A stretch of DNA of 64,000 nucleotides from Bacillota bacterium (GCA_023411175.1 JAEYPB010000043.1:19324-83323); one strand, 5' to 3'. Shown: positions 8,889 through 23,611, counted from the first letter of the stretch. Made by a program: numbers and translations. The notes: generated by a model from the letters alone, not told the origin.

Positions 8889-9509
8889 ATGAAACACAGA
8901 ATCGCTGCGCTGGTCCTGGCGCTGGTCCTGATCGCGCTCCCTGCCTTCGCGCAGACCGTAGAGGAGGAACTGGCCACCTATTGGGAAAAAGCGAATCCGC
9001 TCCATGCGCAGATTGAGGCGTTGGGCGCGCGGCAGACCGAAATCTACCTTCAGTTCGGGCTTTCGCTGACTGATGAGGACGGCGAAGTCATGGACGACGC
9101 CGCCTATGAACAGTACGTTCGCGATCTGGGCGTGCTGACCGAGGACGAACTCAAGACGCTGATGGATGCCAACGCGGAGATCGTAAAGCTGGCCGGTGAT
9201 GTGGAGGAATTGTCCGCCTCCTACCAAGCCTCCAGCGATCCCGCCGAGCAGAATGTGCTGGACGGCCTGATCCACTTCAAAAACGACCAGATTCAGGCAC
9301 AGGTGAAGGCCATCGCCGAACTGGACGACAAACTGCGCGTCGCGGAGGAGACCAACTACGTGATGGGCCTTGACGGCCTTGACGACGCGGCCCGGCAGGA
9401 GCTTCTTTCCATGTACGCCACCCAGCGCGATGTGGAAAAGCAGCTGAGCGCGCTGGAGGAAGCCTTAAGCGACGCGGCCCAGGACGAACTGTACGGGCAC
9501 GACCATTAA
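8889..9509 (+). CDS. Secreted hypothetical protein: signal peptide, then an acidic coiled-coil region
   Basis: MKHRIAALVLALVLIALPAFAQ signal peptide. RBS GAGGAGAAAAG. Confidence 0.7.
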   Translation: MKHRIAALVLALVLIALPAFAQTVEEELATYWEKANPLHAQIEALGARQTEIYLQFGLSLTDEDGEVMDDAAYEQYVRDLGVLTEDELKTLMDANAEIVKLAGDVEELSASYQASSDPAEQNVLDGLIHFKNDQIQAQVKAIAELDDKLRVAEETNYVMGLDGLDDAARQELLSMYATQRDVEKQLSALEEALSDAAQDELYGHDH

Positions 9510-9523
9510 TTACGCAATGAAAA

Positions 9524-9554
9524 GGCGCCGCTTTGCGACAAGCGGCGCTTTTTC
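9524..9554. terminator. Bidirectional intrinsic terminator between two convergent genes
   Basis: GGCGCCGC-TTTGCGACA-GCGGCGC hairpin flanked by AAAA on one side and TTTTT on the other. Confidence 0.5.
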
Positions 9555-9567
9555 TATCTTTAGTCCA

Positions 9568-10533
9568 TCACTCCACATATTTTTTCAGGTGGCCGAAGCC
9601 CGCTTCGTCCATCTTCTCGAGAGGTATGAACTTCAGCGCCCCGCTGTTCACACAGTAGCGCACGCCGGAGGGCGATTCGCGGTCGCCTTCGAACACATGC
9701 CCGAGGTGGGAGTCGCCCCCGCGGCTCCTGATCTCGGTGCGGATCATGCCATGGGAGCGGTCTCGGCGGTAGACCATGGTGTTGTCGTCGATGGCCTTTG
9801 CAAAGGCCGGCCAGCCGCAGTCGCTTCGGTATTTGTCCTTTGAGGAGAACAGCGGTTCGCCGGTGGCGACGTCCACGTAGATGCCCTTTTCATCAAAGCG
9901 CCAGTACTCGCCTTCAAAGGGGCGCTCGGTGGCGTCTCCCTGCGTCACCGCATACTGGATGGGCGTCAAAATCGACCGGAGCTTACGGTCGTCTGGGCGG
10001 ATAAAGCCCTTCGGATCGACGGTCAGCGCCTTCGCTCTGGCGAACGCCGCCGGACCCAGATGGCAGTAACCGGTGGGGTTTTTGTCCAGATAATCCTGGT
10101 GATACTGCTCGGCGGGGTAGAAGCTGGTCAGCGGCTCGATGCGCACGCGGAAGGCCTCCCTGCGCCCCTTTTCGATCTCCGCCGCCTGTCGGATGATCTC
10201 CCCGTCGTACGGATTCTCGTAAAAAACGCCGGTCTGGTACTGGGGGCCCACGTCGTTGCCCTGACGATCCTCCACCGTCGTGTCGATCACCGAAAAAAAC
10301 AGAAAGACCAGCGCCTCCAGGCTGACCCTTCCGGGGTCATAGGCGACACGGACGGTCTCCCGGTGACCGGTCCGCCCGGTGCAGACCTGTTCGTACGTCG
10401 GGTTCACCACATGCCCGTTGGCGTATCCGCTCATCGCGTCCACGACGCCGGGCACCATGCTCATCAGTTTTTCCATACCCCAAAAGCAGCCTCCGGCAAA
10501 ATAAATGACCGAAGGCTCCTGTGCAGTGTCCAT
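9568..10533 (-). CDS. msrAB: Bifunctional peptide methionine sulfoxide reductase MsrA/MsrB
   Basis: N-terminal MsrA motif GGCFWG. C-terminal MsrB motifs (CGWPAF, HLGHVF, RYCVNS). Confidence 0.9.
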   Translation of the reverse strand: MDTAQEPSVIYFAGGCFWGMEKLMSMVPGVVDAMSGYANGHVVNPTYEQVCTGRTGHRETVRVAYDPGRVSLEALVFLFFSVIDTTVEDRQGNDVGPQYQTGVFYENPYDGEIIRQAAEIEKGRREAFRVRIEPLTSFYPAEQYHQDYLDKNPTGYCHLGPAAFARAKALTVDPKGFIRPDDRKLRSILTPIQYAVTQGDATERPFEGEYWRFDEKGIYVDVATGEPLFSSKDKYRSDCGWPAFAKAIDDNTMVYRRDRSHGMIRTEIRSRGGDSHLGHVFEGDRESPSGVRYCVNSGALKFIPLEKMDEAGFGHLKKYVE

Positions 10534-10676
10534 AGTGCTTCCCTCCCAAATCGTTCTGCCATAGCGTGCGCAATCGGACGCCGCGCCATGCCACGCTTTG
10601 TTTATACCGCAAAACGCCCCGGCGAATCAGTGGGTTTGACGAAGGTGCTATAATGGAAGCGGGAGGTGGACAAGAC

Positions 10677-11237
10677 ATGTCCCTCATCGAAATCATCCGC
10701 GCGTATCAGCCCGGCTGCGCGCAGGAGGCGGCGGACCGGCAGGTGATGCTCGCATCGCTTGAGCGGGGCGAAAAGCTGCTGACCCGGGAAAACCTCGTAA
10801 TGCACTTCACCGCGTCCGCGTGGATCGTAAACCCGCCGCAGACAAAGGCTTTGATGGTCTACCACAACCTGTACGACTCCTGGGCCTGGACCGGCGGACA
10901 CGCCGACGGCGAGGAGGACCTGTTAAGGGTCGCGCTGCGCGAGGCCGAGGAGGAGACCGGAGCCCGTGTGCGGCTTTTGCGCCCGGCGGTGTATTCGCTG
11001 GAAACGCTGACCGTCAACCCCCACATTAAGCGCGGCAAGTACGTGCCCGCGCACCTGCACCTGAACCTGACCTACCTTCTGGAGGCGGACGAATCCGACC
11101 ATCTCACCATCAAGCCCGACGAGAACCGGGGAGTTGCCTGGTTCCCGCTGTCGGACGCCGTAGACGCCTGCTCCGAGCCGTGGATGCGCCCCGTCTATGA
11201 AAAGCTCAACGCGCGCCTCGATACAGATCCCGCGTAA
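10677..11237 (+). CDS. NUDIX hydrolase
   Basis: Nudix box GGHADGEEDLLRVALREAEEETG. The start was moved to the ATG at 10677, which has an upstream purine-rich RBS. Confidence 0.8.
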   Translation: MSLIEIIRAYQPGCAQEAADRQVMLASLERGEKLLTRENLVMHFTASAWIVNPPQTKALMVYHNLYDSWAWTGGHADGEEDLLRVALREAEEETGARVRLLRPAVYSLETLTVNPHIKRGKYVPAHLHLNLTYLLEADESDHLTIKPDENRGVAWFPLSDAVDACSEPWMRPVYEKLNARLDTDPA

Positions 11238-11342
11238 TAATCCCAGCATCCAGGATTGTTTGTTTCATTTTGTAATAAAATTGTCATATTATATTTACAC
11301 CTTGCCCTCGGCGTGGTATAATACCATGCGGAGGGGATTTAT

Positions 11343-12431
11343 GTGCGCAAACTGATCAAAGCGGCCCTGGCGCTTTTAATTATCCTCGCGATGCCCGCAA
11401 GCGCCGCGACCACCCTGCCCAAGATTTCTCTGGTCGTAAGCGGCGAGCGCATCGCGCTTTCGTCGTCCACCGGCTACGTCGGAAAAAGCGGCAGCCGCGT
11501 AACCATCCCGCTGGAGACGGTCTTGAAGGCGCTGTCCATCGAATACACCACTTCCCACGGCGGCAAGCGCATGTACATGGAAGGCGCGGGAAAGTCGCGC
11601 GTGGTGGTGGCCTCCGGCTACGGCTTTGCCAAGGTAGACGGCAAGAAAAAGGCCCTGAAAGCGCGGGTCTATCAGAAAAACGGCCAGCTGATGGCTGATG
11701 TTTCCATCCTGAAGCTGCTGGGCGCGGGCTACAAGACCGCCTCGGCCGCGTCGCTTTCAAAAAAGGGCTACCCTTCCGGCGGTCTGTCCATCAGCCCCGC
11801 GGGCAAGGACATCACCTTCCCCACCCTCTCTACGCAACCCGAGCCATCCGAGACGAACAGCTTTGCGGCGGATCTCCCGGCCGCAAAGACCAGCGACCAG
11901 CTGGTTGTCGTCAAGTACAAGAGCGGCTCCACCGCCACCTTGACCATGCACGAAAAGGACTCGGACGGCGTATGGCGGCAGACCCTGTCCTCCACCGCCT
12001 ATGTTGGCAGGAACGGCATCGGCAAGACCAAGGAGGGCGACAAGAAGACCCCCACCGGCACCTTCAACCTGAAGACGCCCTTTGGCATCAAGTCCAACCC
12101 TGGCACGAGCCTTGATTACGTAAAGGTGACCAAGTACCACTACTGGTGCGGCACCTCCGGCTCCAAATACTACAACCAGCTGATCGACACGCGGCTGACA
12201 AACCGCGCCCGAACGCGCTCCGACGAATACCTCATCAACTACAAGGGCGTGTACAACTACGCCGCGTTCATCGATTACAACGCCTCCGGCACCGCCGGCA
12301 AGGGCTCCTGCATCTTCCTGCACTGCACTGGCTCCAACAAGTACACCGCCGGATGCATCGCGATCCCCGAGAGCGTGATGATCAAGGTGCTGAAGAACCT
12401 GAAGGCCGGCTGCAAAATCGTAATCTACTGA
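11343..12431 (+). CDS. L,D-transpeptidase (YkuD/ErfK family catalytic domain) with an N-terminal signal peptide
   Basis: C-terminal GSCIFLHCTG...TAGCIAI (His/Cys catalytic motif). GTG start with RBS GGAGGGG. Extended -10 TGGTATAAT at about 11311-11319. Confidence 0.8.
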   Translation: MRKLIKAALALLIILAMPASAATTLPKISLVVSGERIALSSSTGYVGKSGSRVTIPLETVLKALSIEYTTSHGGKRMYMEGAGKSRVVVASGYGFAKVDGKKKALKARVYQKNGQLMADVSILKLLGAGYKTASAASLSKKGYPSGGLSISPAGKDITFPTLSTQPEPSETNSFAADLPAAKTSDQLVVVKYKSGSTATLTMHEKDSDGVWRQTLSSTAYVGRNGIGKTKEGDKKTPTGTFNLKTPFGIKSNPGTSLDYVKVTKYHYWCGTSGSKYYNQLIDTRLTNRARTRSDEYLINYKGVYNYAAFIDYNASGTAGKGSCIFLHCTGSNKYTAGCIAIPESVMIKVLKNLKAGCKIVIY

Positions 12432-12450
12432 TTCTTCCCCAGCAGATGTA

Positions 12451-12483
12451 AAAATGCCGGAACCATACGGTTCCGGCATTTTG
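12451..12483. terminator. Bidirectional intrinsic terminator
   Basis: AAAAT-GCCGGAACC-ATAC-GGTTCCGGC-ATTTT. Confidence 0.6.
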
Positions 12484-12494
12484 CTATATGTCTT

Positions 12495-13727
12495 TTATTG
12501 CGCGGGCTTCGGAACCCCGCCCCGCTGGGGCGCGCCGGAAGTGATCGGGCCCAGGCGGTACGAGAACATGATCGCCGAATTGGGGCAGGCCTTGTAGAAC
12601 GCGCGCTTGACCCGCTCCAGCACCATCTTGCCGGTATCGTGGTTGACCAGCGGCAAAAGCAGCGCGTACTGCGAGGCGCTGAAGTGGGTGATGGTGTCGC
12701 CCTTTCGAAGGTTCCCCACCAGCGTCTTCTGCAGCGTCTGCATGATGTCATTGAGGCGCATCGGCTCCAGCGGATTGCTGCCGATGGAGGTGACCATGAT
12801 CAGCGCGATGAACATCGTAGAGCCCATGCGCTCGAGGTTGCGCATCTGCAGGTTGTAGATCTCCTTGAAGACCGCGTACTCGCACACAAACGCGCCTCGC
12901 TGGCTGCCGTATTCGGTCAGCTCCTTGCGGATGGCGTCGATGTCCATGTCCAGCGTCTTGCCGGCCTTCAGGATCTGCTTGTAGAACTCCTGGATGGCCT
13001 CCGGCGGCTGCATGCCCAAGTAGCGAAGGTGCAGGTTTGTGGCGTGCTTGTACTGGATCAGCGCCTCGTTGTTGCGGTTGGTGCGGATCAGCGCGTTCAT
13101 CAGCGCCAAATGCAGCCGCTCGTCGAACACGTCCACGTCCAGCGCCAGCCGGCACACGTGGATCATGCGCTCAAAGTCCTTCGCTTCCTTCAGGAGGTCC
13201 AGGTAGCTGTAGACCAGCTTCAGATACTGGCTGTGCAGGTAGACGCTGCGGGAAACCACCCAGTCTTCCTGCTCGAGGCCGGGCAGAAGATCCCCCTGGA
13301 ACAGCGACAGAAGCCGGTTGAACTTCTGGTGGACCGAATCGTCCAGCGCGGAGACGTCGTTCAGCTCCGCAGCCAGCCGGTCGAACTCCAGCGTATCCAC
13401 CTCAATGCCCGCCTGACTGTTGAAGCGATAGGAGCCGCGCTCGGTGATGATCGCCGCGCCCAACTCCGGCGCAATTTCAGAGAGGATCGCGCGGGTGCGG
13501 CTCACCAGCGTTTTCAGCGCGCCTTCGGGGTTTGAGCTCTGCTCGTCTTCCCAAAGCACCTCGTAGAGCTTGAAATTCGGCGCGGACTCGCCGCCCCTGA
13601 GCACGAGGTATTGCAGAAGCCGGGTACCCTTTCTGGTCTTGGCGAGCTGTTTTTCAACGCTCTGTTCGTCCACCAGCACATCAAATTTTCCCAGCATTCT
13701 GATCGAAATCCGGTGCTTTTCCTCCAT
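12495..13727 (-). CDS. SARP-family regulator (OmpR-type winged helix plus BTAD) fused to a C-terminal degenerate GGDEF-like domain
   Basis: N-terminus matches the SARP pattern (MLGKFDV...KTRKGTRLLQYLVL...LYEVLWEDE...ALKTLVSRTRAIL). The C-terminal RKGDTITHFSASQYALLLP resembles a GGDEF fold in which the GG(D/E)EF motif has been lost. Confidence 0.6.
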   Translation of the reverse strand: MEEKHRISIRMLGKFDVLVDEQSVEKQLAKTRKGTRLLQYLVLRGGESAPNFKLYEVLWEDEQSSNPEGALKTLVSRTRAILSEIAPELGAAIITERGSYRFNSQAGIEVDTLEFDRLAAELNDVSALDDSVHQKFNRLLSLFQGDLLPGLEQEDWVVSRSVYLHSQYLKLVYSYLDLLKEAKDFERMIHVCRLALDVDVFDERLHLALMNALIRTNRNNEALIQYKHATNLHLRYLGMQPPEAIQEFYKQILKAGKTLDMDIDAIRKELTEYGSQRGAFVCEYAVFKEIYNLQMRNLERMGSTMFIALIMVTSIGSNPLEPMRLNDIMQTLQKTLVGNLRKGDTITHFSASQYALLLPLVNHDTGKMVLERVKRAFYKACPNSAIMFSYRLGPITSGAPQRGGVPKPAQ

Positions 13728-13754: not shown

Positions 13755-14814
13755 CTAGATTTTTTTGCCCATGATATCCGGGTTGATCGCGTATGAAAGC
13801 GCGAAGTCGCGCGTGATGCGCCCCGCGCGGAAAAGCTTCAGAATGTCCTCATCCATCGAGATCATGCCCTGGGCGCTGCCCGCGTAGATCGCGTTGTCGA
13901 TCTGATGGCCCTTGCCCTCTCGGATCATGTTGGAAATGGCGGGCGTGACCACCATAACCTCCATTGCCGGCGCGAGGCCGCCGTCCACCGTGGGGATCAG
14001 CTGCTGGGAGACCACCGCCAGGAGCACCATCGAAAGCTGCACGCGCACCTGCGCCTGCTGGGCTGCCGGGAAAACATCCACAATGCGGTCGATGGTCTTG
14101 GCCGCGCCCAGCGTGTGCAGCGACGAGAGCAGAAGGTGCCCCGTCTCGGCGGCGGTCAGCGCGGTGTGGATGGTTTCATAGTCCCGCATCTCGCCCAGGA
14201 GGATCACGTCCGGAGCCTGCCGGAGCGCGGAGCGCAGCGCGCGGGCAAAATCCGTCGCGTCCAGCGCGATCTCCCGCTGACTGACGATGGATCTCTGGTG
14301 CGGGTGCAGGTACTCGATCGGATCCTCCAGCGTAATGATGTGGCTGTCGGACTCCCGGTTGATCCGGTCGATCATGCAGGCCAGCGTGGTGGACTTTCCG
14401 CTGCCGGCCGGCCCGGTGACCAGAATCATGCCCCGCTTTTTCGCGCAAAGGTCCATGACCACCTGCGGAATGCCCAGCGCCCTGTAATCCGGCAGGCCGA
14501 AGGGCACTGCCCGGAGCACCGCCGCGGGCGAACCCCGCTGCATGTAGGTGTTGCAGCGAAAACGCCCGATGTCCCGCACGGAGAAGGAGAAATCATCGTC
14601 GCCCGTCTCGGTGAGCCGCGATACCGCACGTCCCCCCGCAAGCTGGTAGGCTGTTTCGATCAGCGCGCGGGTGTCGTTCATGTTCAGTTTTTCACCCATC
14701 AGCGGCTGCATGACGGTTCCGATCTTCACCGTCGCGGGCGCGCCCGGCACAAGGTATACGTCCGAGCCGCCCTTTTCCACCGCCGCCTTGAGAAGGTTTA
14801 TTAGTTCCACAAAC
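13755..14814 (-). CDS. pilT: Type IV pilus retraction ATPase, PilT family
   Basis: Walker A GPAGSGKSTT. PilT-specific AISNMIREGK...GMISMDEDILKLFRAGRITRDFAL. The start was moved to the GTG (VELINLL...) with RBS GGGGGAA; the longer track ORF 13755..14906 has no RBS. Confidence 0.85.
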
Positions 14815-14827
14815 GTTCCCCCATGCG

Positions 14828-15295
14828 TCAACTGAACAGGTTGAGGTTTCGGTCCTCGCCCGTCCACAACTCGCCACCGATCAGCGCGTAGCGCACAACC
14901 GTACAATGCGGCGCCGTCTCAGAGGGCCTGACGGCCACGGACAGCACCCGTCCGCCGCCCGCGTCCACCGTAAAGGACAACATCTCTCCGTCGAAATCCA
15001 GCGGAACCCCTCCCGCCTCGCGCCCGGACAGCGCCGCCTCGAAGGCTTCCCGGTCGGAGGTCGACGCGGCCGCATTCCGGACGATTCCGTCCAGCTGTGC
15101 CAGCACCCGCTGCGCGCGGTCGGAGGCTTCGTAGTACGCCTCGGACAGCGCAACCGCGCGGCCCGTCAGCGCCGCGTCGCCCCGCGCGCCGGACAGCGCC
15201 AGAAGCGCCAGCGTCGTCACACACAGCACCGCGAAGATGGTGAGCATCGTCGATGCGCCGATGCCGACCCGGTATTCCTGCTTGGGCCGGTTCAT
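14828..15295 (-). CDS. Pilus-associated single-TM protein (minor pseudopilin-like), hypothetical
   Basis: MNRPKQEYRVGIGASTMLTIFAVLCVTTLALLAL. Its ATG overlaps the upstream stop (ATGA). The start is internal to track ORF 14828..15529. Confidence 0.5.
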   Translation of the reverse strand: MNRPKQEYRVGIGASTMLTIFAVLCVTTLALLALSGARGDAALTGRAVALSEAYYEASDRAQRVLAQLDGIVRNAAASTSDREAFEAALSGREAGGVPLDFDGEMLSFTVDAGGGRVLSVAVRPSETAPHCTVVRYALIGGELWTGEDRNLNLFS

Positions 15296-15684
15296 GGCGC
15301 CACCTCCCCGGGAACGTACCGGCTGGCCGGCAGCGTGATGAGCGCCTTGTCCCTGATGGAGACGGTGAGTCGGATGTCGTAGAGGGTGCCCGCGTCTTCC
15401 GCTTCGGGCGTAAGGGCCGCGTACACGGTATAGCCGTCCTGCTCGATCGCGTAGCCGCCCTCCGCCTCGGTGCCGGCGCCCTTGATAAGAGAAGCGGGGT
15501 CGTCCGAGACGGCGATACGCTCCGCCCAATCCTGCGCGATAAACAGCGCCTCGGTGGTGCGGCGGCTGTCAAGGCCGATCTGGTGGGCCCGGGCCAGCAC
15601 GCCCGAGGCGATCACCGCAGATACCGCGAAGAAGGCCAGCGCGATCAAGAGCTCAAGAAGCACCAGATTGCCCTTATAGCGCAC
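15292..15684 (-). CDS. Type IV pilin-like (pseudopilin, ComGC/GspG-like) protein
   Basis: Prepilin-like N-terminus MRYKG-NLVLLELLIALAFFAV: a Gly cleavage site followed by a hydrophobic helix, with Glu near +5/+6. Confidence 0.6.
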   Translation of the reverse strand: MRYKGNLVLLELLIALAFFAVSAVIASGVLARAHQIGLDSRRTTEALFIAQDWAERIAVSDDPASLIKGAGTEAEGGYAIEQDGYTVYAALTPEAEDAGTLYDIRLTVSIRDKALITLPASRYVPGEVAP

Positions 15685-16177
15685 CCGTTTCGCCCCCTTC
15701 CCCGGCGCGCAGCGCGACGCTCGTCACGGCCACGGTGCCGTCGGACAGATGCGCGCGAAGGATGATCCGCGCGCCCTCCCCGTAGAAGGTGAAGCCGGGC
15801 AACGAAGCGATCCGCTCGCCGTCGTCCGGGCTGAATGGAACGGAGACATCGTAGAACTGTTCGTAGAGTCTGCCATCCTTCGAATAGATGCGCGTCTCGT
15901 AGGTCTCTCCGTCCGCCTCGTCCCGGATCACCAGGAGCTTTACCCCCTGTTCTTCCCGAAAGGATACGCTTTTCCGATCCCCGCTGGCGCGCAGTTTGCC
16001 GCTGACGTAGCCCAGCGCGATGCGCTCCTGGGTTACAACCCGCGCGGAATCCCCCATCGCCCGGTAGGAGCGGACGCCCGCCAAGACGATCGTAAGCGAC
16101 ATAAGCGTAAACAACCCGACCAGCACAAAGGCGAACAGGCCGCTGACGCTGTGCTCCCTGCGCTTCCCAACGCTCAT
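15674..16177 (-). CDS. Pilus-operon single-TM protein, hypothetical
   Basis: SGLFAFVLVGLFTLMSLTIVLAG TM near the N-terminus. ATGA overlap with the upstream gene. Confidence 0.5.
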   Translation of the reverse strand: MSVGKRREHSVSGLFAFVLVGLFTLMSLTIVLAGVRSYRAMGDSARVVTQERIALGYVSGKLRASGDRKSVSFREEQGVKLLVIRDEADGETYETRIYSKDGRLYEQFYDVSVPFSPDDGERIASLPGFTFYGEGARIILRAHLSDGTVAVTSVALRAGEGGETGAL

Positions 16178-16512
16178 GCGCCATCATCCCTTCTCAAAAC
16201 CGAGACCGTCGGCATGATGTTGGACGCGAACGCATCATAGGAGACGATGAACCGGTCGCCGTCGAACGCGAGCGCGTAGTTGTCCGTCAAGTAGTCCAGC
16301 GAGGGCGGATACTGTCCTTCCGTCGCGTAGCAGGTGACCATCGCGCGCCGGACGGCCTCGCGAAGCTGCGCTTCCTGCTCGGCGTCCGACTGTGCGCCGG
16401 CGACGCCGACCGCCCAGATGAAGCCGAGCATGACGGCGAAAAGCGCGGCTGCCGTCACGATCAGCCCTCGAAGATTGCCCTTTGGCCGCTTTTCATAGAG
16501 ATGCTGACGCAT
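16174..16512 (-). CDS. Pilus-operon single-TM protein, hypothetical
   Basis: RPKGNLRGLIVTAAALFAVMLGFIW. Lies 4 nt downstream of the pilC-like stop. Confidence 0.5.
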   Translation of the reverse strand: MRQHLYEKRPKGNLRGLIVTAAALFAVMLGFIWAVGVAGAQSDAEQEAQLREAVRRAMVTCYATEGQYPPSLDYLTDNYALAFDGDRFIVSYDAFASNIMPTVSVLRRDDGA

Positions 16513-16516
16513 GCCG

Positions 16517-17581
16517 TTACCCCAGCGACGACATCAGGCTCGCCAGCGGCAGCATGACCGAGAGCAGAATGCCGCCGATGACGATTGACATGATCGCCAC
16601 CAGCGTCGGCTCAATGGTCGAAACCAACCGCCGGATCCCGTCGTCCACCTCGTCCTGATAGGTTTCCGCCAACCGCTCCATGACCGTCTCCGTCTGACCG
16701 GCCATGACGCCAACGCGGATCATCTTGCCGTGAATCGGCTCGAAGATGCGCGCGCCTTCGATGGCGTCGGCAAAGGCCGCGCCCTCCTGCATCCGGGCGC
16801 GGACGCTCTCCACCTTGGCGCGGCTGCCCTCATCCGTCATCACGTTCGGCACGAGGTCCATCGCCTGATCCAGCGGGAAGCCGCTGCCCATCAGCATCGC
16901 CATCACGGAGGCAAAGCGCCCCGCGGACAGCTTGTCCGCCACGAGGCGAAGCGGTCTGAACGAGCGCAGGAGGAAACGGATCACGGCATCCCGCTTTTTT
17001 GTTCTGAGCAGAAGCGCAACCCCCAAGACAGCGAGGAGAATCAGCCCCGCCAGCGTCAGCACAAAGGCGCCCGCCCCGAGGCCTGCATCCATGCGCGCCG
17101 TGGTGGTAGCGGAGAGGTCCCCGCCGAGGTTGCGCAACACCTCTGAAAACATCGGCAGCACTTGCACCACCAGCACCACCACGACCAGCGTCATCAGCCC
17201 CACCATGAGGAGCGGATAGGTAACGGCGCTGCGCACGGTGGCGCGCACCTGGGCCTCCCGCGCGTAGTGCGCGGCGAGCCCCTGCATCACGCGCTCCAGC
17301 GTACCGGCCTGTTCGCCCACGCGCACCATCTGAACCATGTAAGGCGGAAAGACGTCCAGCGCCGCCACCGACTCGTACAGCGAGCCGGTGCGCTTCATCG
17401 TCTCGTTCAGGCGCTGAAACCTTTCGCCGTAGCGGGTGGCGGCGTAGTTTTCGCACAGCGCCTCGACGCCGTCGTACAGCGCGATGCCCGATTTTAGTAG
17501 TAGCGCCACCTGCTCGCAGAACAGGGCCGTCTCGTCCGCAGGCAGGTAACGGGTGCGGCTGCCCATCGCTTCTTCCCCCAT
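16517..17581 (-). CDS. Type II secretion / type IV pilus platform protein (GspF/PilC/ComGB family)
   Basis: 354 aa with two T2SSF-like halves and three TM segments. Confidence 0.8.
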   Translation of the reverse strand: MGEEAMGSRTRYLPADETALFCEQVALLLKSGIALYDGVEALCENYAATRYGERFQRLNETMKRTGSLYESVAALDVFPPYMVQMVRVGEQAGTLERVMQGLAAHYAREAQVRATVRSAVTYPLLMVGLMTLVVVVLVVQVLPMFSEVLRNLGGDLSATTTARMDAGLGAGAFVLTLAGLILLAVLGVALLLRTKKRDAVIRFLLRSFRPLRLVADKLSAGRFASVMAMLMGSGFPLDQAMDLVPNVMTDEGSRAKVESVRARMQEGAAFADAIEGARIFEPIHGKMIRVGVMAGQTETVMERLAETYQDEVDDGIRRLVSTIEPTLVAIMSIVIGGILLSVMLPLASLMSSLG

Positions 17582-17588
17582 CTTTCGC

Positions 17589-18419
17589 TCAGTAGAACCG
17601 TTCGGTCGTATACTTTACCACCTTGAGGCCGGTGACCATGCTGGTGGTGTCATATCGCTTCCATTCGCCGCCCAGCAGAACCTCGTTCCACGCGTGGTAA
17701 AATGTGTCCGCGTACCCGATGACCAGCTTGCACTTGATGCCTTGAACCCGAAGCATGCAAGCAACCAGCGCCGCGTAGTCAAAGCAGATGCCCTTTTTGG
17801 TGGATAAGGTTGTGTCCGGATCGGGCAGGTAGCCGCTTTGAACCGTCTTGGCCAGGATGTGATCATAGAGCACCGTGCCCACGACGTAATCGATCACCGC
17901 CTTGGTGATCGCCGCGTCGTCCGCCAGCCCTTTTGCGAGTTCGCTGGATTTGGCGACCGCCGCATAGCTGGCGTCGTAGGAAACGTACTGGCTCGGGTAA
18001 AGCGCATAGCCGGACTCGTCCGAAAGCGCTACCTTCACCTTCTTGGCGTAAAGCTGCGCGTACTGGCTGCCGCGAACCTGCTCGAACGCCGTCACCTGAT
18101 AGGTGCCGCTGCCCAGTTGCAGCGGAAAGATCTGGTACTCCCCGGTGGGAAGATCGTAGGTGTAGGTTCCGTCTCCCTTGACGATCCGCAGCTTGAGCTT
18201 TTTCTTGCGCGAAGCCTTGATCATCAGGTATCCGCCGGACGCGTTGCTTGCGTCGATGGTCACGCCAGAACCCTCGTACACGGTTTCCCCGACAGCTTCC
18301 GGATATTTCGCATTGGTTACATCCGCGAGATATGCGTGAAGAGAAACAGCGGTCAGCGCGATTACGAGCGCACAGGCGATTGCAATAGCGTTCAACGCGG
18401 CTTTCCGCCATCTTTTCAT
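17589..18419 (-). CDS. Transglutaminase-like cysteine protease-fold protein, membrane-anchored
   Basis: N-terminal TM. C-terminal GICFDYAALVACMLRVQGI ... YHAWNEV (transglutaminase-like Cys/His core). Confidence 0.7.
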   Translation of the reverse strand: MKRWRKAALNAIAIACALVIALTAVSLHAYLADVTNAKYPEAVGETVYEGSGVTIDASNASGGYLMIKASRKKKLKLRIVKGDGTYTYDLPTGEYQIFPLQLGSGTYQVTAFEQVRGSQYAQLYAKKVKVALSDESGYALYPSQYVSYDASYAAVAKSSELAKGLADDAAITKAVIDYVVGTVLYDHILAKTVQSGYLPDPDTTLSTKKGICFDYAALVACMLRVQGIKCKLVIGYADTFYHAWNEVLLGGEWKRYDTTSMVTGLKVVKYTTERFY

Positions 18420-18527
18420 ACCGCGCTCGGCCTCCGTCCCGTTACATTCTCCTTTATGTAACCATAATCCTCCATTTATACCGTATTATATCAGGAAATA
18501 CAACGGGGCGCAACGCTTTTCGAACCC

Positions 18528-18959
18528 TTATACGGCGGTCTCAAGAAGAAAACGAATCGCGTCCACATACCCCTGAAAGCCCTGCCCGGCGATTTTTGTC
18601 CGGCACGCGGCGGTCACATAGGAAACCTTGCGGAACGCCTCCCGCGAATCTACGTCGGAGATGTGCACCTCCACCGCCGGGAGACCCACCGCCTTGAGCG
18701 CGTCCAGGATCGCCACGGAGGTATGGGTATAGGCCGCCGGGTTGATGACGATGCCGTCGAACGCGCCGTAAGCGGCCTGAATTTCGTCCACGATGGCGCC
18801 CTCATGGTTGGACTGAAAGCACTTGACCGCAACGCACATGTCCCGGGCGGCGGCCTCGATCTCCGAAACGAGGTCCCCATAGGTCTTCCGGCCATAAATG
18901 TCCGGCTCCCGTATACCCAGCATGTTGAGATTGGGTCCGTTGATGATAAGAATTTTCAT
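18528..18959 (-). CDS. aroQ: 3-dehydroquinate dehydratase, type II
   Basis: MKILIINGPNLNMLGIREPDIYG...HISD is typical of AroQ. Start set at MKILII. Confidence 0.85.
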   Translation of the reverse strand: MKILIINGPNLNMLGIREPDIYGRKTYGDLVSEIEAAARDMCVAVKCFQSNHEGAIVDEIQAAYGAFDGIVINPAAYTHTSVAILDALKAVGLPAVEVHISDVDSREAFRKVSYVTAACRTKIAGQGFQGYVDAIRFLLETAV

Positions 18960-20188
18960 ACGCGCACCTCTTCCCGAAAGCGTTTGACGACCTCCCCCGC
19001 AGTCTGCGATGGGCATCGCTCGAGGGTCAGGCCGATGTCCCGCGCCGCCGCGTAGAGCGGCGCCCGCGCGGCGTGCATCCTTTCCAGCGCGGGAAGCCCT
19101 GTCGAAAGCGGACGCCCGCCCGTCGAAAGCTCCGAAAGCGGCCGCTCGAGTTGTACCACAAAGCAGTTCGCCCGGAGCAGCGCCCGGTTCTCCGCGCGGA
19201 GCACCGCGCCGCCGCCGGTGGCGATCACCGCGCCCCGGGCCAGCGCCGCCTCCCGGATGGCCGCGGCCTCCAATTCGCGAAAGCGCGCCTCGCCCTCCCG
19301 GGCAAAGATCCCCGGGATCGGCCCGTGCACCGCTTCGATCATCTGGTCCGTGTCAAAAACCTGCCGTCCGAGGAGGCGCGCCACCTCCCGGGCGACCGTG
19401 GACTTTCCGGACCCCGGCATGCCGACGAGGGCGATGGAGCGGGTCTCCCGGGCCAACCACGAAAGCGTGTCCGAAACCCGTTCTTCCGGAACCGGCGCAC
19501 CGAGAAAGCGCCAGGCGCTCGCCGCCGCCTGATGCACCAGCATCGAAAGCCCGCCCACCGCCGTCAGGCCCTTCTCCGCCGCCCGCTGCATCAAAAGCGT
19601 CCGAGCGGGGTTATAGATCACATCCGCGACGCCCTGAAGTCCCTCGATGCGCCCCGGCTCCACCGGCGCAGAGAGCATATCCGGGTACATACCCACGGGC
19701 GTGGCGTTCAAAACGAAATCTGCCCGCAATCTGTAGACCCCTTCGTAGTCGACTTCTCCGTCCCTCGACACCGGGACGGCCTTCGCGCCGAGGTCGTTCA
19801 GCACACAGGCGGCGGTCCTTCCGGTGCCGCCGGTGGCGCCCAGGACGAGCGCGGTCTTCCCGGCGAGGTCAAACCCCTCCAGCATCCTCGTCATGCCGTA
19901 ATGGTCGGTGTTGTGGCCGGTGAGCGCGCCGTCTTTATCAAAATAGAGGGTGTTCACCGCACTGATGCGCTTTGCTTCCTGCGTCAGGCGGTCGCAAAAC
20001 GGGATCACCGCCTGCTTGAAGGGGATGGTCACATTGAGCCCGTCAAAGCCGTGGCCGCGGATAAAGGACTCAAGTTCGCCCGGCGCAAGCTCGATGAGGC
20101 GGTATTCGCAATCGTACAGCCGCTCGTGGATCAGCTTTGAATAGCTGTGGCCCAGCTTGCCGCCGAGAAGCCCGTAAACCTTCGCCAT
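18956..20188 (-). CDS. aroE-aroK: Bifunctional shikimate dehydrogenase / shikimate kinase (AroE-AroK fusion)
   Basis: N-terminal AroE motifs (GLNVTIPFK, NTD). C-terminal shikimate kinase P-loop IALVGMPGSGKSTVAREVA. Confidence 0.85.
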   Translation of the reverse strand: MAKVYGLLGGKLGHSYSKLIHERLYDCEYRLIELAPGELESFIRGHGFDGLNVTIPFKQAVIPFCDRLTQEAKRISAVNTLYFDKDGALTGHNTDHYGMTRMLEGFDLAGKTALVLGATGGTGRTAACVLNDLGAKAVPVSRDGEVDYEGVYRLRADFVLNATPVGMYPDMLSAPVEPGRIEGLQGVADVIYNPARTLLMQRAAEKGLTAVGGLSMLVHQAAASAWRFLGAPVPEERVSDTLSWLARETRSIALVGMPGSGKSTVAREVARLLGRQVFDTDQMIEAVHGPIPGIFAREGEARFRELEAAAIREAALARGAVIATGGGAVLRAENRALLRANCFVVQLERPLSELSTGGRPLSTGLPALERMHAARAPLYAAARDIGLTLERCPSQTAGEVVKRFREEVRV

Positions 20189-20189
20189 G

Positions 20190-21329
20190 TCACACCTCGC
20201 TGTAATTGCCCAGGAACGTGAGGCCGCCGGACTGGCTGAGCTCTGACAGGAGCAGCTTCACATCCCGGTCAACCACCGAGCCCTCGAAGTCGAAGTAGAA
20301 CATGAACTCGAAGTCCCTGCCGGGGATGGGGCGGCTCTCCAGCTTCAGAAGGTTCAGCCCCTCCACCGCGAAGCGCGCCACCGTGCGGTAGAGCGAGCCC
20401 GGCGTATGGGGCAGCGATGCCATGATGCTGATGCGGTTGGCGCCCGGGTACACCTCCATCTCGCGGGAGATGCAGATGAAGCGGGTGTAGTTGCTGCCGT
20501 CGTCCATGATGCGCTCTTCAAGCGGCGTAAGGCTGTAGAGCTCGGCGTTTCGCGCCGAGGCGATGGCCGCGACGTCCCTGCGCCCGGATTCAGACACGTA
20601 CCGCGCGGCGGTGGCGTTGTTGGCGTAGGGCGTCAGCTTCACATCCTTGAGCCCAGAGAGGAAGCGACCGCACTGCCGGAGCGCCTGCTCGTGGGCGACG
20701 ACCTCTTTGATTTCGGAGAGCTTCACGCCCGGCGCCACCAGAAGGCGGTGCTCGATGCGCAGCTTCACGGACCGCGCAATGAAGAATTTATGCGCCTTCA
20801 TCAGGTCATATACATCGGTGACAGAGCCTGCGAGGCTGTTTTCCAGCGGCAGCACGCCGTAGCGGCACATGCCCTTCTCCACCGCCTGGAACACGCCTTC
20901 GAAGCCCGAGAAGTAGAGGATGCCGGGCATGTTGAACATCACGTCGCAGGCCTGCTGCGAGTAGGCGCCCTCCGCGCCCTGACAGGCCACCAGCGCGTTC
21001 TTGGGAAAGAGCTTGGGCGTAGCGGCCACCGCCGCGTCGAGGGCGTCGGCAAAGGATTCCGCTTCCGGCCTCATCAGCTTTGACTGGGCGCTTCTGCTGA
21101 GGTCAAAGAGCAGCGCGTAGATCAGCTTCAGGTCGGGCTCGTAGATCGGGTCATGGGCGGCGGTCAACCGCTGCAGGATGGCGCGCTCCCGGCCGGGGTC
21201 GGAGATCGCGATGCCGCCGGCCCGCTTGGCCTCCACGATGTCCCGCACGGTCTGCATCCTCTTGACGTACAAATCCGCCATCTGGTCGTCGATCTGGTCA
21301 ATCCGGGCGCGGAGTTCGTTCATATCCAT
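20190..21329 (-). CDS. pheA: Chorismate mutase / prephenate dehydratase (P-protein)
   Basis: N-terminal chorismate mutase helix (LRARIDQIDDQMADLYVKRM), PDT domain and a C-terminal ACT domain (ESRPIPGRDFEFMFYFDFEG). Confidence 0.85.
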   Translation of the reverse strand: MDMNELRARIDQIDDQMADLYVKRMQTVRDIVEAKRAGGIAISDPGRERAILQRLTAAHDPIYEPDLKLIYALLFDLSRSAQSKLMRPEAESFADALDAAVAATPKLFPKNALVACQGAEGAYSQQACDVMFNMPGILYFSGFEGVFQAVEKGMCRYGVLPLENSLAGSVTDVYDLMKAHKFFIARSVKLRIEHRLLVAPGVKLSEIKEVVAHEQALRQCGRFLSGLKDVKLTPYANNATAARYVSESGRRDVAAIASARNAELYSLTPLEERIMDDGSNYTRFICISREMEVYPGANRISIMASLPHTPGSLYRTVARFAVEGLNLLKLESRPIPGRDFEFMFYFDFEGSVVDRDVKLLLSELSQSGGLTFLGNYSEV

Positions 21330-21363
21330 TTGAGATTACCTCCCTTATATACATATACGGTGA

Positions 21364-22434
21364 TTAGATCTTTTGTCCGGAACGGATCATGTAAAGATCG
21401 ATGAGTGCCAGCGCCGCCATCGCCTCCACGACGGGCACGGCTCTCGGCACCACGCAGGGGTCGTGCCGCCCGCCCACGGAGAGGGTTTCCTCGCGCATCT
21501 CGGCCAGGTTCACGGTGCGCTGGGGCTTTGCGATGGACGAGGTGGGCTTGAAGGCCACCCGGAACACCACGGGCATGCCGGTGGTGATGCCGCCCAAGAC
21601 GCCCGCGTGCCGGTTCGAGCCTGTCAGAATCCGTCCGTTTTCGACGACAAAGGCGTCGTTGTGGGTGCTGCCGCGCATCCGGGCGGCGGCGAAGCCCGCG
21701 CCGAACTCCACGCCGCGAACCGCGGGGATTGAAAACATCAGCCGCGCAAGCGTGCTCTCGACGCTGTCCATCATCGGCTCGCCGAGGCCCGCCGGCAGGC
21801 CCTCCGCCACGCATTCGACGACGCCACCCACCGAGTCGCCGTCGAGGCGCGCCCGTTCGACGGCCTCGCGCATCATGACGCCCGCGCGATCGTCGAAGAC
21901 CGGAAACTCCTTCGCTTCCACGGCGGCGAGGTCGCCCTCGAAGGCATCCAGAATGCCGCCGATTTCGTAGATGCGCGCGCGGACAACGATGCCGCGCCGC
22001 TCCAGAATCTGCTTTGCCACGGCCCCCGCGAAGCAGATGGGCGCGGTGAGCCGCCCGGAGAAGTGCCCGCCGCCGCGAAGGTCCACGCTATCGCCGTACT
22101 TGACGCGGGCGGTGAAGTCCGCGTGTCCGGGGCGCGGCAGGTTTTTCAGCGCGTCGTAGTCGCCCGAGCGCTGGTCGGTGTTCTCAATCAAGGCCATGAG
22201 CGGCGCGCCGCAGGTCTTGCCGTCCACAAAGCCGGAGAGCACCTTCGGCTCGTCCGGCTCGCGCCGCTTGGTGGCATGCGCGGCGTTTCCCGGCGCGCGG
22301 CGGCGCATGAAGGCGTGCACGCGCTCCATGTCAATGGCTTCACCCGACGGCAACCCGTCCACCACCGCGCCGATGGCCTCGCTGTGCGACTGGCCGAATA
22401 CGCTGACCTTAACGATCGTCCCAAAGCTGGATGA
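21364..22434 (-). CDS. aroC: Chorismate synthase
   Basis: GTIVKVSVFGQSHSEAIGAVVDGLPSG and other AroC motifs. Start set at MSSSFG. Confidence 0.9.
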   Translation of the reverse strand, partial: SSSFGTIVKVSVFGQSHSEAIGAVVDGLPSGEAIDMERVHAFMRRRAPGNAAHATKRREPDEPKVLSGFVDGKTCGAPLMALIENTDQRSGDYDALKNLPRPGHADFTARVKYGDSVDLRGGGHFSGRLTAPICFAGAVAKQILERRGIVVRARIYEIGGILDAFEGDLAAVEAKEFPVFDDRAGVMMREAVERARLDGDSVGGVVECVAEGLPAGLGEPMMDSVESTLARLMFSIPAVRGVEFGAGFAAARMRGSTHNDAFVVENGRILTGSNRHAGVLGGITTGMPVVFRVAFKPTSSIAKPQRTVNLAEMREETLSVGGRHDPCVVPRAVPVVEAMAALALIDLYMIRSGQKI

Positions 22435-23611
22435 CATCCGAATCTCCCCCCAGTCTATTGAAATCTTCAAAGAACGTTGGATAGGATTTATTCACCGCTT
22501 CCGCCCCCAGAATCGTCACCGGGCCACGGCAGCGGGTACCCGCGATGGCGAAAGCCATCGCGATCCGGTGGTCGCCCGCCGCGTCTACGGTGCCGCCCTC
22601 GGGCATCCGCGCGCAGCGCACGATGAGTCCGTCCGCCAATTCGTCGCAATCGCCGCCGATGGCGCGAATGCCCTCCGCCATCGCGCGGAGCCTGTCGCTC
22701 TCCTTGATGCGCAGCCGCGCCGCGCCGGAAAACCGCGTCTCTCCCGGCGTCAAGGCCGCCACCGCCGCGAGAATGGGCAGAAGGTCCGGCGTCTCCCGCA
22801 CGTCCAACTCGCGGCGCTCCGCGTTAAGCGCCGCCAGCATGGCGCGGATCGCCCGGTCAGGCTGGGCGGAGTCCTCATCGAGGCCGTCCACCTGCGCCCC
22901 CGCCGCGAGAAAAAACGCGGCGTTCGACCAGTCGCCCTCTACGGCCAGTGCGCCCGGCGATCGGTAGCGCGCGGCGGGCACCGTCCAGCCGTCCACGTTT
23001 TCCAGGACGCGTACGCCAAAGCGCGCCATGGCGGAGACCGTCATGCGTACATAGCCCGCGGATTCAAGGGGCGTGGTCAAATGGATGCGGCCGCCGCCAA
23101 CCAGCGGCAGCGCCATCAAAAGGCCTGTGATGAATTGGGAGCTGACGTCCCCCGGCAGGCGGAAGTCGCCACCGGTCAGCCGCCCGGAGAGTGTGAAGGG
23201 CAGTTTTTCCCCGTCGAATGCGCAGCCGTGTGCGGCGAGAGCCTCTACGAGGGGGCCCAGCGGCCGCTCCGGCAGCCTGCCCCGGCCCGCAAAGCGGGTA
23301 GGCACGCCCAAGGCGGCGGCGAGGGGAATCAAGAATCTCAGCGTGGAGCCGCTCTCGCGGCAGTCCGCCGCGCCGCAGGGCGGGAATGCGCCCGGCTTTA
23401 TGAGAAAGCCTCCGGGTACGGTTTCGTGGGATGCGCCCAGCGCGGGAAGACAGGAAAGGGTCGCGTCGATGTCGTCGGAGTGCGCCTCCGGGGAAATATG
23501 GGTGGGGCCGTCCGACAGCGCCGAGAGCATCAGCGCCCGGTGCGCCGCGGACTTTGAGACGATGGCCTCCACGCGCCCGGAGAGCGCGCCGGGTCGCACC
23601 CGGGCGATCAT
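22409..23611 (-). CDS. aroA: 3-phosphoshikimate 1-carboxyvinyltransferase (EPSP synthase)
   Basis: 400 aa with the EPSP synthase fold signature (KSAAHRALMLSAL..., LRIKESDR). Confidence 0.9.
   Translation of the reverse strand: MIARVRPGALSGRVEAIVSKSAAHRALMLSALSDGPTHISPEAHSDDIDATLSCLPALGASHETVPGGFLIKPGAFPPCGAADCRESGSTLRFLIPLAAALGVPTRFAGRGRLPERPLGPLVEALAAHGCAFDGEKLPFTLSGRLTGGDFRLPGDVSSQFITGLLMALPLVGGGRIHLTTPLESAGYVRMTVSAMARFGVRVLENVDGWTVPAARYRSPGALAVEGDWSNAAFFLAAGAQVDGLDEDSAQPDRAIRAMLAALNAERRELDVRETPDLLPILAAVAALTPGETRFSGAARLRIKESDRLRAMAEGIRAIGGDCDELADGLIVRCARMPEGGTVDAAGDHRIAMAFAIAGTRCRGPVTILGAEAVNKSYPTFFEDFNRLGGDSDVIQLWDDR

Follow-up and report, generated by a model that had tools for sequence, protein, structure and literature searches.

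A conserved seven-gene type IV pilus-like cassette with a PilT-family ATPase and a transglutaminase-like enzyme in Clostridia

Comparison with described type IV filament systems

Two rules are treated as nearly universal in type IV filament systems: a dedicated peptidase processes the pilins at Gly-1, and a PilB/GspE-type ATPase builds the filament while PilT only retracts it. PilT is classically a depolymerase. The cassette analysed here encodes a transglutaminase-like Cys-His-Asp enzyme (gene 1), a PilC/GspF-type platform (gene 2), four small single-transmembrane proteins (g3 to g6) and a PilT-family ATPase (gene 7), and its ATPase, platform and pilin fold are those of the type IV filament (TFF/T4F) superfamily. 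It was followed in a 64-kb window, the whole stretch of 64,000 nucleotides that was analysed, and in 80 species-level genomes out of 145 with a match, 68 loci being complete.

The type IVa pilus (T4aP) is alike in its PilT-family ATPase, which in the cassette is above cut-off and carries the AIxNxIRE motif, in its two-domain PilC/GspF platform, and in a priming complex (PilV/W/X, FimU) that the four pilin-fold proteins resemble. Unlike T4aP, the cassette locus carries no PilB, PilD, PilM/N/O or canonical major pilin, three of its four pilin-like proteins lack a conserved Gly-1 and three lack Glu+5, and the seven genes form one compact unit with the transglutaminase-like enzyme as obligatory first gene. 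A PilB beside PilT was not found, as no second secretion-type (T2SSE) ATPase occurred in the 64-kb window or in 1.22 Mb of flanking DNA (~10 kb around the cassette in 80 species), and a second T2SSF gene was likewise absent from the window. Neither a canonical prepilin nor an A24 peptidase motif was present in the window or within ~10 kb of the cassette in the 80 loci, and class III signal peptides (Gly-1, Glu+5, A24 cleavage) were not recognized there. PilM/N/O and canonical major pilin families were missing among the Pfam-annotated neighbours of the sampled loci, where a putative PilM-like protein was seen at the Anaerofustis locus L065 alone.

The pseudopilus of the type II secretion system (T2SS), consisting of GspG with a GspH-I-J-K tip, is approached at the level of folds: g4 aligns with chains the size of GspJ in the EpsI:EpsJ and XcpV:XcpW entries, EpsG and PulG are matched by g3, GspI is weakly matched by g5, and the cassette could plausibly form a pseudopilus that stays short instead of a long fibre. 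GspE and GspF equivalogs and a GspG-K set were not recognized beyond this resemblance. Unlike T2SS, the cassette occurs in monoderm hosts with no secretin, has an ATPase of the PilT type (GspE model 131 against a cut-off of 630), and lacks GspL, GspM, GspC and a prepilin peptidase.

The ComG system (ComGA-GG with ComC) is similarly a compact Bacillota operon with a platform of ~350 aa followed by several small pilin-like genes, and with a single ATPase. Unlike ComG, the cassette places its ATPase at the operon end, within the PilT clade and not that of ComGA, has neither canonical KGFTLxE signal peptides nor ComC, and adds a transglutaminase-like enzyme and a SARP regulator. No ComGA or ComGB equivalog and no ComGC-GG pilin was recognized, all scores being below cut-offs. 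In the Tad pilus a single ATPase, CpaF/TadA, serves extension as well as retraction, a precedent cited in PMC6668835. The cassette differs from this pilus by an ATPase of an unrelated clade (46.2 bits against a cut-off of 373 for the TadA-family model heli_sec_ATPase) and by the absence of TadB/C, TadV and Flp pilin, no Flp-like gene being seen. A previous sequence-only reading of this DNA had suggested, as an alternative, a Tad/Com-like variant; the components resemble T4aP and T2SS instead, through PilT and the GspG/I/J-like folds.

Gene organization of the locus

Seven tightly packed ORFs lie on the minus strand at 13755-18419, each confirmed by sequence reading at the position originally claimed for it. 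Translation of the sixth gene begins with the ATG at 15295 (155 aa) and not at the start of a longer 233-aa ORF; for PilT the GTG at 14810 (351 aa) is the most likely start, with GGGGGA 7 nt upstream, and the last junction then measures 17 nt. The remaining junctions are 7 nt (or 22 nt), 4 nt, an ATGA overlap, an 11-nt overlap and another ATGA overlap. Of the coupling proposed by the sequence-only reading, with gaps of 14 nt or less, the ATGA overlaps and the 4-nt gap were recovered, whereas the last junction is longer and no "TGATG" was seen. Across loci, ATGA overlaps predominate at the g3-g4, g4-g5 and g5-g6 junctions.

Two further elements, absent from that reading, flank the operon. An eighth gene for a SARP-type regulator (12495-13727) begins 27 nt past the PilT stop, and the 108-nt gap 5' of the operon, after aroQ, holds an extended -10 element, TGaTATAAT. 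Together with a 17-nt spacer and a weak -35 TTGCGC, this element forms a candidate promoter at 18485..18513 on the minus strand, as read from the sequence, which falls below the consensus-scan threshold because the -35 matches at only 3/6 bases. The upstream neighbour of the cassette is a shikimate-pathway operon in place of PilB, PilD and a major pilin, indicating that the cassette is not the tail of a standard pil cluster. The operon is thus as atypical as had been proposed, with no PilB/GspE-type ATPase and no prepilin peptidase encoded within it or upstream.

Platform and ATPase

Gene 2 (16517..17581, minus strand) encodes a PilC/GspF-type inner-membrane platform of 354 aa, or of 349 aa from an alternative ATG at 17566. 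It matched T2SSF PF00482 (E 1e-44) over two domains and remained under every NCBIfam equivalog cut-off (GspF 192.6 against 424, ComGB 117.6 against 240).

Gene 7 (13755..14810, minus strand) encodes the sole ATPase of the cassette, a hexameric ATPase that proved to be a true PilT-family member, in line with the earlier assignment. The 13755-14906 ORF scored 424.9 bits against the PilT/PilU family TIGR01420 (cut-off 319.1), T2SSE PF00437 was matched with an E value of 4e-44, and the ComGA model gave 128.9 against 300. The best solved relative is Aquifex PilT with 336 bits, compared with only ~95 bits for PilB proteins. The motifs quoted in the sequence-only reading, KGNLVLLELLIALAFF, AISNMIREGK and GMISMDEDILKLFRAGRIT, are all present in the operon. 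In gene 7 the Walker A, Walker B, His box and AIxNxIRE motif are fully conserved among 50 homologues.

Four pilin-like proteins

The product of g3 (16174..16512, minus strand; 112 aa) has a PilA/GspG-like fold that matches EpsG and PulG. Its Gly-1 is 64% conserved and Glu+5 is missing. Considering this fold, g3 is a candidate main subunit of PilA/GspG type, and the former statement that no major pilin is present was too strong.

The product of g4 (15674..16177, minus strand; 167 aa) belongs to DUF4860 (PF16152; E 3e-17, 62.8 bits against a gathering threshold of 25), a family of 2534 clusters at 50% identity, and adopts a GspJ/PilW-like minor pseudopilin fold. Its AF2 model (pLDDT 91.7) shows a helix at residues 10-65 followed by a beta-sheet, and the top eight Foldseek matches in the PDB are all EpsI:EpsJ or XcpV:XcpW entries (probability 0.91-0.99, E ~0.03). 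The matched chains have 152-160 residues, the size of GspJ, and were assigned by us as GspJ. Glu+5 is missing here as well, and Gly-1 is 57% conserved.

The product of g5 (15292..15684, minus strand; 130 aa, GTG start) is a GspI/PilV-like pseudopilin and the only one of the four with Glu+5. In its family E11 is invariant (100%) and L9 is 97% conserved, with Asn (63%) or Ser (21%) taking the place of Gly at the -1 position. The top four PDB matches of the family profile are all type IV pilins (E 0.11-3.5), in which E11 aligns with pilin E5. Weak matches to GspI (E 0.011, below cut-off), PilV and ComGE (E 0.099) were also obtained.

The fourth pilin-like protein, encoded by g6 (14828..15295, minus strand; 155 aa), bears an invariant G-x-G ahead of the hydrophobic helix (G13 100%, G11 90%) and no Glu+5. 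No match was found for it in Pfam and PDB sequence searches, and a ComGG match appeared in 1/20 members (E 0.19). Comparison of g6 with the g5 family by hhalign (probability 77%, E 2e-5) shows the two to be distant paralogues. The position and missing Glu of g6 make it a candidate apical subunit resembling GspK, PilX or ComGG.

Taken as a set, the subunits include the type IV pilin fold, a long N-terminal hydrophobic helix on a beta-sheet. The portrayal of four tiny transmembrane proteins, one of them prepilin-like, has to be revised accordingly: g3 and g4 have pilin/pseudopilin folds, g5 follows the Glu5 register and g6 is the g5 paralogue. Run against ComG and PilV families, the small ORFs reached no family cut-off and showed no canonical class III signal peptide, and hence do not turn out to be known members of these families. 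An unannotated small-protein family of this set counts 3882 clusters, in which every source-named match is called "hypothetical".

Transglutaminase-like enzyme

Gene 1 (17589..18419, minus strand) encodes a predicted membrane-anchored extracytoplasmic enzyme of 276 aa, built from an N-terminal anchor, a beta-rich domain and a Transglut_core domain. The match to Transglut_core PF01841 (E 3e-18; 66.5 bits against a cut-off of 23) places it in the transglutaminase-like superfamily, and its closest solved relative, 3isr, is labelled "putative cysteine protease". All 69 homologues retain the triad residues C212, H242 and D257, and the C-terminal Tyr is invariant in 69/69. Inclusion of the gene in a pilus module, as first proposed, is borne out by its occurrence in 66 of the 68 loci with room for it, with the triad 100% conserved; it is the first cassette gene in 62-66 of 68 loci. 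That the enzyme covalently crosslinks a fibre, as the first reading suggested, is speculative.

Conservation across Clostridia

At least 145 clostridial species from the gut and the environment carry the cassette, including Christensenellales, Oscillospiraceae, Lachnospiraceae and Eubacterium callanderi. Conservation of the tgl-pilC-pilT arrangement in relatives, proposed as a check in the first reading, was found gene for gene: the same seven genes recur in 68/68 complete loci drawn from the 80 species, nearly always in identical order and in unrelated neighbourhoods, and every cassette encodes its own platform and its own ATPase. The seven-gene operon is real, and considering this recurrence its arrangement is far beyond chance. 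No published description of the cassette was found. A genome note on E. callanderi mentions PilT alone and states that pili were not seen by SEM (PMC7660998).

Large surface proteins adjoin some copies, namely a 3969-aa SpaA-domain protein in L011, a MucBP/Flg_new protein in L009 and a 1041-aa repeat protein in L065; such neighbours are not conserved from locus to locus. The Anaerofustis locus L065 also has a PilC of canonical size (403 aa) near the cassette, and a protein 6 kb away on the other strand, which we take by eye to be PilM-like. This pair suggests that at least some hosts carry a standard system as well.

Proposed mechanism and alternative explanations

The explanation we favour, with a probability of about 0.5, is that the cassette is a self-contained, reduced type IV filament machine that has PilT as its only motor and builds a short pseudopilus of four subunits. 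A PilC-type membrane platform powered by a single PilT-family ATPase would work on the four co-translated pilin-fold proteins g3 to g6. Considering the mostly 4-nt overlaps and the three of four proteins without the polymerisation Glu, we suggest that these assemble in roughly equal amounts into a short pseudopilus or a tip-type complex and do not build a long fibre. PilT would drive both insertion and withdrawal, or reset a self-assembling complex. The poor conservation of Gly-1 suggests that maturation of the subunits does not involve a PilD-type peptidase. The transglutaminase-like enzyme, anchored in the membrane, would act on the outer face. It may dock to the complex as a partner, perhaps by means of its invariant C-terminal strand, or alternatively might cut or crosslink the cell wall or a surface substrate. 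We know of no PilT-family ATPase shown to be the sole motor of a filament system, which counts against this mechanism. In its favour, a PilT is reported to promote MSHA pilus extension as well as retraction (PMC9815625), and a general I-J-K initiation complex is known that becomes complete once a C-terminal beta-strand is added (PMC13533445). The frequent scattering of T4aP genes over several loci also counts against autonomy (PMC6668835).

The same scattering lends some weight to the main rival, that the cassette is half of a split T4aP system, contributing platform, minor-pilin priming complex and retraction motor, with PilB, PilD, a major pilin and PilM/N/O encoded elsewhere in the genome. 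PilT is known as a retraction ATPase in all characterised systems, an I-J-K-like set primes canonical pili (PMC13533445), and the PilC and putative PilM-like protein of Anaerofustis L065 fit such an arrangement. We nevertheless judge it less likely, since a standard system would itself require a PilC and the cassette already has one, since no PilB, PilD or canonical pilin lies within ~10 kb in 80 species, and since nothing in known T4aP loci corresponds to the transglutaminase-like gene or to so strict a unit of seven genes. The main pil cluster of C. difficile, in which pilT comes after the minor pilin genes, speaks for the split system. Gly-1, to our knowledge, is essentially invariant wherever PilD acts; its replacement by Asn/Ser in g5 and its conservation of only 57-64% in g3 and g4 speak against it.

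If the cassette were a clostridial DNA-uptake pseudopilus of competence (Com-like) type, this would account for the comG-reminiscent layout in a monoderm host, where the platform gene precedes about four small pilin-like ones, for g3 being as small as ComGC, and for the weak ComGE and ComGG matches. Such a competence role is highly improbable in view of the PilT-family ATPase and the sub-threshold ComGA and ComGB scores, the non-canonical pilin signal peptides and a transglutaminase-like enzyme known from no Com system; ComEA, ComEC, ComFA and ComC were also absent among the Pfam-annotated neighbours of the sampled loci, as judged from annotation and not from a targeted search. Improbable, too, is a non-filament device in which PilC and PilT extract or export the transglutaminase-like enzyme or another surface protein, with the small proteins as adaptors, like a T2SS piston in a monoderm. 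The GspG/I/J-like appearance of the subunits, the enzyme always being encoded first and the large surface proteins beside the cassette in L011, L009 and L065 would suit it, but these neighbours vary between loci, and the enzyme has its own N-terminal anchor/signal and would need no pseudopilus to cross a single membrane. We know of no precedent for a PilC/PilT export device in monoderms, which weighs against it further.

Significance

A conserved, widespread cassette that seemingly breaks both rules stated at the outset would be a natural test of them. We tentatively put at a little short of even odds that it represents a new class of filament machine, widespread in Clostridia, with a PilT-family sole motor, no prepilin-peptidase maturation and an obligatory transglutaminase-like partner possibly docked at the tip. 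In that case either assembly can be powered by a PilT, or a pseudopilus that assembles by itself requires nothing more than a motor for disassembly, and processing at Gly-1/Glu+5 would not be universal in the superfamily. Structural assignments are gained for Pfam DUF4860 and three unannotated families. The generic TFF detection model requires a recognisable major pilin (PMC6668835), and none of the four pilin-like proteins matches a pilin model, so standard detection models would probably miss the cassette. The hosts include abundant gut commensals, in which a surface machine, maybe under c-di-GMP control, could play a part in adhesion or colonisation.

SARP/GGDEF regulator

Gene 8 (12495..13727, minus strand) occurs in 30/64 loci and lies directly downstream in 26. 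Where present, it probably controls transcription of the cassette and may do so in response to c-di-GMP, which its predicted domains would possibly allow it to sense. The N-terminal part combines an OmpR-type winged helix (Trans_reg_C) with BTAD, and the C-terminal profile matched solved GGDEF domains (E 6e-7). In the alignment RkGD...SxxQY stands opposite RKSD...GGEEF, indicating a degenerate domain in which the active-site motif is replaced by SxxQY and RxxD is kept, with R341 and D344 100% conserved.

Gene content and layout of the cassette

Seven consecutive minus-strand ORFs were found at window positions 13755–18419, and profile searches showed that the layout proposed in the sequence-only reading was right but for small details. 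The first gene (17589–18419, −) encodes a transglutaminase-like protein (Transglut_core PF01841, E 3e-18) and the second (16517–17581, −) a two-domain T2SSF platform of the PilC/GspF type (PF00482, E 1e-44). Four genes for small single-transmembrane proteins follow, designated g3–g6. Both g3 (16174–16512, −; 112 aa) and g6 (14828–15295, −; 155 aa) matched no family in the profile searches, g4 (15674–16177, −) was assigned to DUF4860 (PF16152, E 3e-17), and g5 (15292–15684, −; 130 aa) gave only weak N-terminal matches to GspI, PilV and ComGE. The last ORF (−) encodes an ATPase of the PilT/PilU family (TIGR01420 score of 424.9 bits, cut-off 319.1), for which a GTG at 14810, preceded by GGGGGA, was judged the likeliest start. 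In order, the junctions are gaps of 7 and 4 nt, an ATGA overlap, an overlap of 11 nt at which the next gene starts with GTG, a further ATGA overlap and, ahead of PilT, a gap of 17 nt; hence the tight spacing claimed for all seven genes, 14 nt or less, held for five overlaps or gaps of at most 11 nt and failed at the last, given the likeliest PilT start.

Two features had been absent from the sequence-only reading, namely an eighth gene for a SARP-type regulator (12495–13727, −) starting 27 nt past the PilT stop, and an extended −10 element, TGaTATAAT (18485–18493, −), with a weak −35 within the 108-nt gap between aroQ and the cassette. At the cassette boundaries, scanning the operon strand by consensus yielded neither a promoter nor a terminator, and an Rfam search found no riboswitch, including the c-di-GMP riboswitch, anywhere in the window.

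The possibility that the cassette forms the end of an ordinary pil cluster was rejected, because what lies just upstream of the 108-nt gap is not pilB, pilD or a major pilin gene but an eight-gene aromatic amino-acid operon devoid of pil genes. This compact operon on the same strand (18528–26518, −) comprises genes for DAHP synthase (aroF) and prephenate dehydrogenase (tyrA), aroB, aroA, aroC, the chorismate mutase/prephenate dehydratase gene pheA, a shikimate dehydrogenase-kinase fusion (aroE/K) and aroQ, and its synteny with the cassette is limited to close relatives. No other T2SSE or T2SSF protein and no canonical prepilin was found elsewhere in the 64 kb. Farther along, positions 36000–50000 show a strongly negative AT skew (to −0.29) and a G+C content of 0.56–0.59, against 0.60–0.69 elsewhere in the composition profile, and may represent a block of genes that was acquired or runs in another orientation.

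Conservation and spread

The profile of the DUF4860 protein matched 2534 clusters (representatives at 50% identity, E ≤0.001), and the contigs of 3/3 distant members (26–30% identity) carried all seven genes in identical order within unrelated neighbourhoods. In a survey of one genome per species, the g3 alignment detected relatives in 145 genomes, from which 80 loci were taken with about 10 kb around each match. The hosts include Christensenellales, Oscillospiraceae, Lachnospiraceae, Eubacteriaceae (among them the cultured Eubacterium callanderi FD), Zongyangia hominis and Anaerofustis, together with MAGs labelled Faecalibacterium, Dorea and Catonella; the closest relative of the window is a Bacillota MAG (94%), and a Christensenellales MAG stands at 66%.

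HMMs built from six cassettes were run against every ORF of the 80 loci and recovered the complete seven-gene set in 68, the others being truncated by contig ends, which answers in the affirmative whether the arrangement of transglutaminase-like gene, pilC and pilT is kept in relatives. PilT was present in all 68 loci with room for its gene, and the transglutaminase-like gene in 66/68. Clustering of the neighbours revealed lineage-specific synteny only and no conserved extra component. A second, partial copy containing pilC and g3–g6, lacking the transglutaminase-like gene and pilT, lies at 3883–6853 in the Eubacteriales MAG locus L026, immediately upstream of a complete cassette at 7991–12941. 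Very large or repeat-rich surface proteins adjoin the cassette in some species, such as a 3969-aa SpaA-domain protein (L011, 13974–20474) and a MucBP/Flg_new protein (L009, 16–1032), and they are not kept across loci.

Within the literature library searched, no paper mentioned DUF4860 or PF16152, described the cassette or connected PilT or pseudopilins to a transglutaminase-like protein. None of g3–g6 matched the pilin family models, and the 'generic' model of a large survey of type IV filaments needs a recognisable major pilin (PMC6668835). For E. callanderi, a published genome description lists PilT in isolation and records that pili were not seen (PMC7660998). The parts are clearly those of type IV filaments; in contrast to the norms of this superfamily, PilT is the only motor of the cassette, a peptidase is absent from it, the signal peptides are degenerate and a cysteine enzyme is obligatory, so that its composition departs from several of the usual rules.

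Pilin-like proteins g3–g6

The four small proteins are pilin-like and non-canonical. An AlphaFold2 model of g4 from a 50-sequence alignment (pLDDT 91.7) had an N-terminal helix of 56 residues and then a beta-sheet, and its best eight Foldseek matches in the PDB were all entries of EpsI:EpsJ or XcpV:XcpW complexes (probability 0.91–0.99, E about 0.03, TM 0.35–0.48), the matched chains of 152–160 residues being, as we assume from their size, GspJ. The best four PDB matches of the g5 family profile were all type IV pilins, weak ones (E 0.11–3.5), in whose alignments the invariant Glu11 of g5 fell in register with pilin Glu5. The g6 family was related to g5 by hhalign (probability 77%, E 2e-5). 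Against PDB sequences, the g3 and g6 profiles yielded noise only (TNF receptor and KcsA transmembrane helices); Pfam scans of each member of the g5 and g6 families gave single weak matches, and a PHROGs search nothing useful.

N-terminal conservation was counted over 63–80 homologues. In the pilin register, g5 keeps Glu in 100% and Leu in 97%, with Asn (63%) or Ser (21%) in place of Gly at −1. Glu+5 is lacking in the other three, of which g3 has Gly at −1 in 64%, g4 Gly in 57% or Asn in 20%, and g6 an invariant G-x-G. As is established for the superfamily, Gly−1 is essentially invariant wherever a PilD-type prepilin peptidase works, and Glu+5 is required for polymerisation of every subunit but the apical one. 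The relaxed Gly−1 and the single Glu-bearing subunit thus argue against PilD-dependent maturation of g3–g6 and likewise against a long homopolymer. Overlaps of 4 nt, found at g3–g4 in 43/80, g4–g5 in 34/79 and g5–g6 in 59/76 loci, are consistent with near-equimolar synthesis. Judged by folds and features, the four correspond to the general G/I/J/K scheme, with g3 G-like, g5 I-like, g4 J-like and g6 a candidate K-like subunit; a 2026 study describes an I-J-K trimer as the initiation complex shared by a range of filaments (PMC13533445). Residue 61 of g3 (16174–16512, −) is a lone Cys in a CYAxEGxYP motif, invariant across aligned homologues and located in the extracytoplasmic domain; the gene lies near that of the Cys-His-Asp enzyme.

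The motor and the proposed autonomy of the machine

The identity of the terminal ATPase as PilT, previously proposed from its motifs, was borne out by the TIGR01420 score and by AIxNxIRE, which is kept together with Walker A, Walker B and the His box across 50 cassette PilTs. Among solved structures, Aquifex PilT scored 336 bits, and PilB, GspE and PilF 90–95 bits. Kinship with the SpoIIIA sporulation channel was rejected, since the cassette has an unmistakable PilT as its ATPase and a complete T2SSF with both domains as its platform.

The best-supported reading, to which we give a probability of about 0.5, is that of a reduced type IV filament machine working autonomously, in which four pilin-fold subunits would operate with their own platform and their own ATPase. 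The cassette always occurs as a unit, and the subunits bear no sign of selection for PilD processing. Its main rival, tentative by comparison, is a split type IVa pilus whose PilB, PilD and pilin are encoded elsewhere in the genome. The Anaerofustis locus L065 (178–7760) indicates that hosts of the cassette may carry a standard system too: it alone has a second PilC (403 aa, canonical size, opposite strand, 6 kb off), beside which a protein identified by eye as PilM-like is encoded on the opposite strand, and genes for a GGDEF protein and for a repeat-rich surface protein of 1041 aa lie between the cassette and this PilC. Within about 10 kb in the 80 loci (1.22 Mb in total) there was no second T2SSE ATPase, and no ORF had the GxGDxK motif of A24 peptidases or the N-terminus of a canonical prepilin. 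Less likely than either reading are a non-filament export role, which we consider doubtful, and a role in competence, which seems quite improbable.

The weak point of the autonomous reading is the motor, as we know of no case in which PilT was demonstrated as the lone working motor. There are two partial precedents: extension of the MSHA pilus is reportedly promoted by a PilT (PMC9815625), and Tad and Com, examples of systems with a single ATPase, can retract although they lack PilT (PMC6668835).

The transglutaminase-like enzyme

Cys212, His242 and Asp257 were invariant in 69 transglutaminase-like proteins, whose closest solved relative, 3isr, is an uncharacterised 'putative cysteine protease'. 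The N-terminus consists of a positively charged MKRWRK and a 22-residue hydrophobic stretch, which would anchor the protein and leave its catalytic domain on the outer side of the membrane. So placed, the enzyme could not cut pilin leader peptides, which are cytoplasmic, and it was therefore rejected as a prepilin peptidase substitute. Pseudomurein endoisopeptidases of methanogen viruses have the same fold, which makes an enzyme opening cell-wall cross-links plausible, and one role may be such cutting for passage of the pseudopilus. The C-terminus (17589–17612, −) always reads Y-T-x-E-R-x-Y, with Tyr in 69/69 proteins both at the end and at −7. Invariance of the very last residue suggests a function for the free end or its strand, for example in docking onto a pilin sheet, and docking on the tip complex would be a plausible alternative role.

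The adjacent regulator

The SARP gene was present in 30/64 loci, directly downstream of the cassette in 26. In the window, its product has an OmpR-type winged helix and a BTAD domain, and the profile of its C-terminal domain matched solved GGDEF domains (E 6e-7), 'RkGD...SxxQY' aligning with their 'RKSD...GGEEF'. Arg341 and Asp344, in the RxxD register, were invariant in 31 homologues, and the catalytic GG[DE]EF is lost, replaced by SxxQY. Retention of RxxD without GG[DE]EF suggests a c-di-GMP receptor and not a cyclase, and the protein may be a c-di-GMP-sensing transcription factor. Near the cassette, 9/80 loci encode a membrane protein whose GGDEF domain is intact, in varying orientation, as at 15480–16586 of L087.
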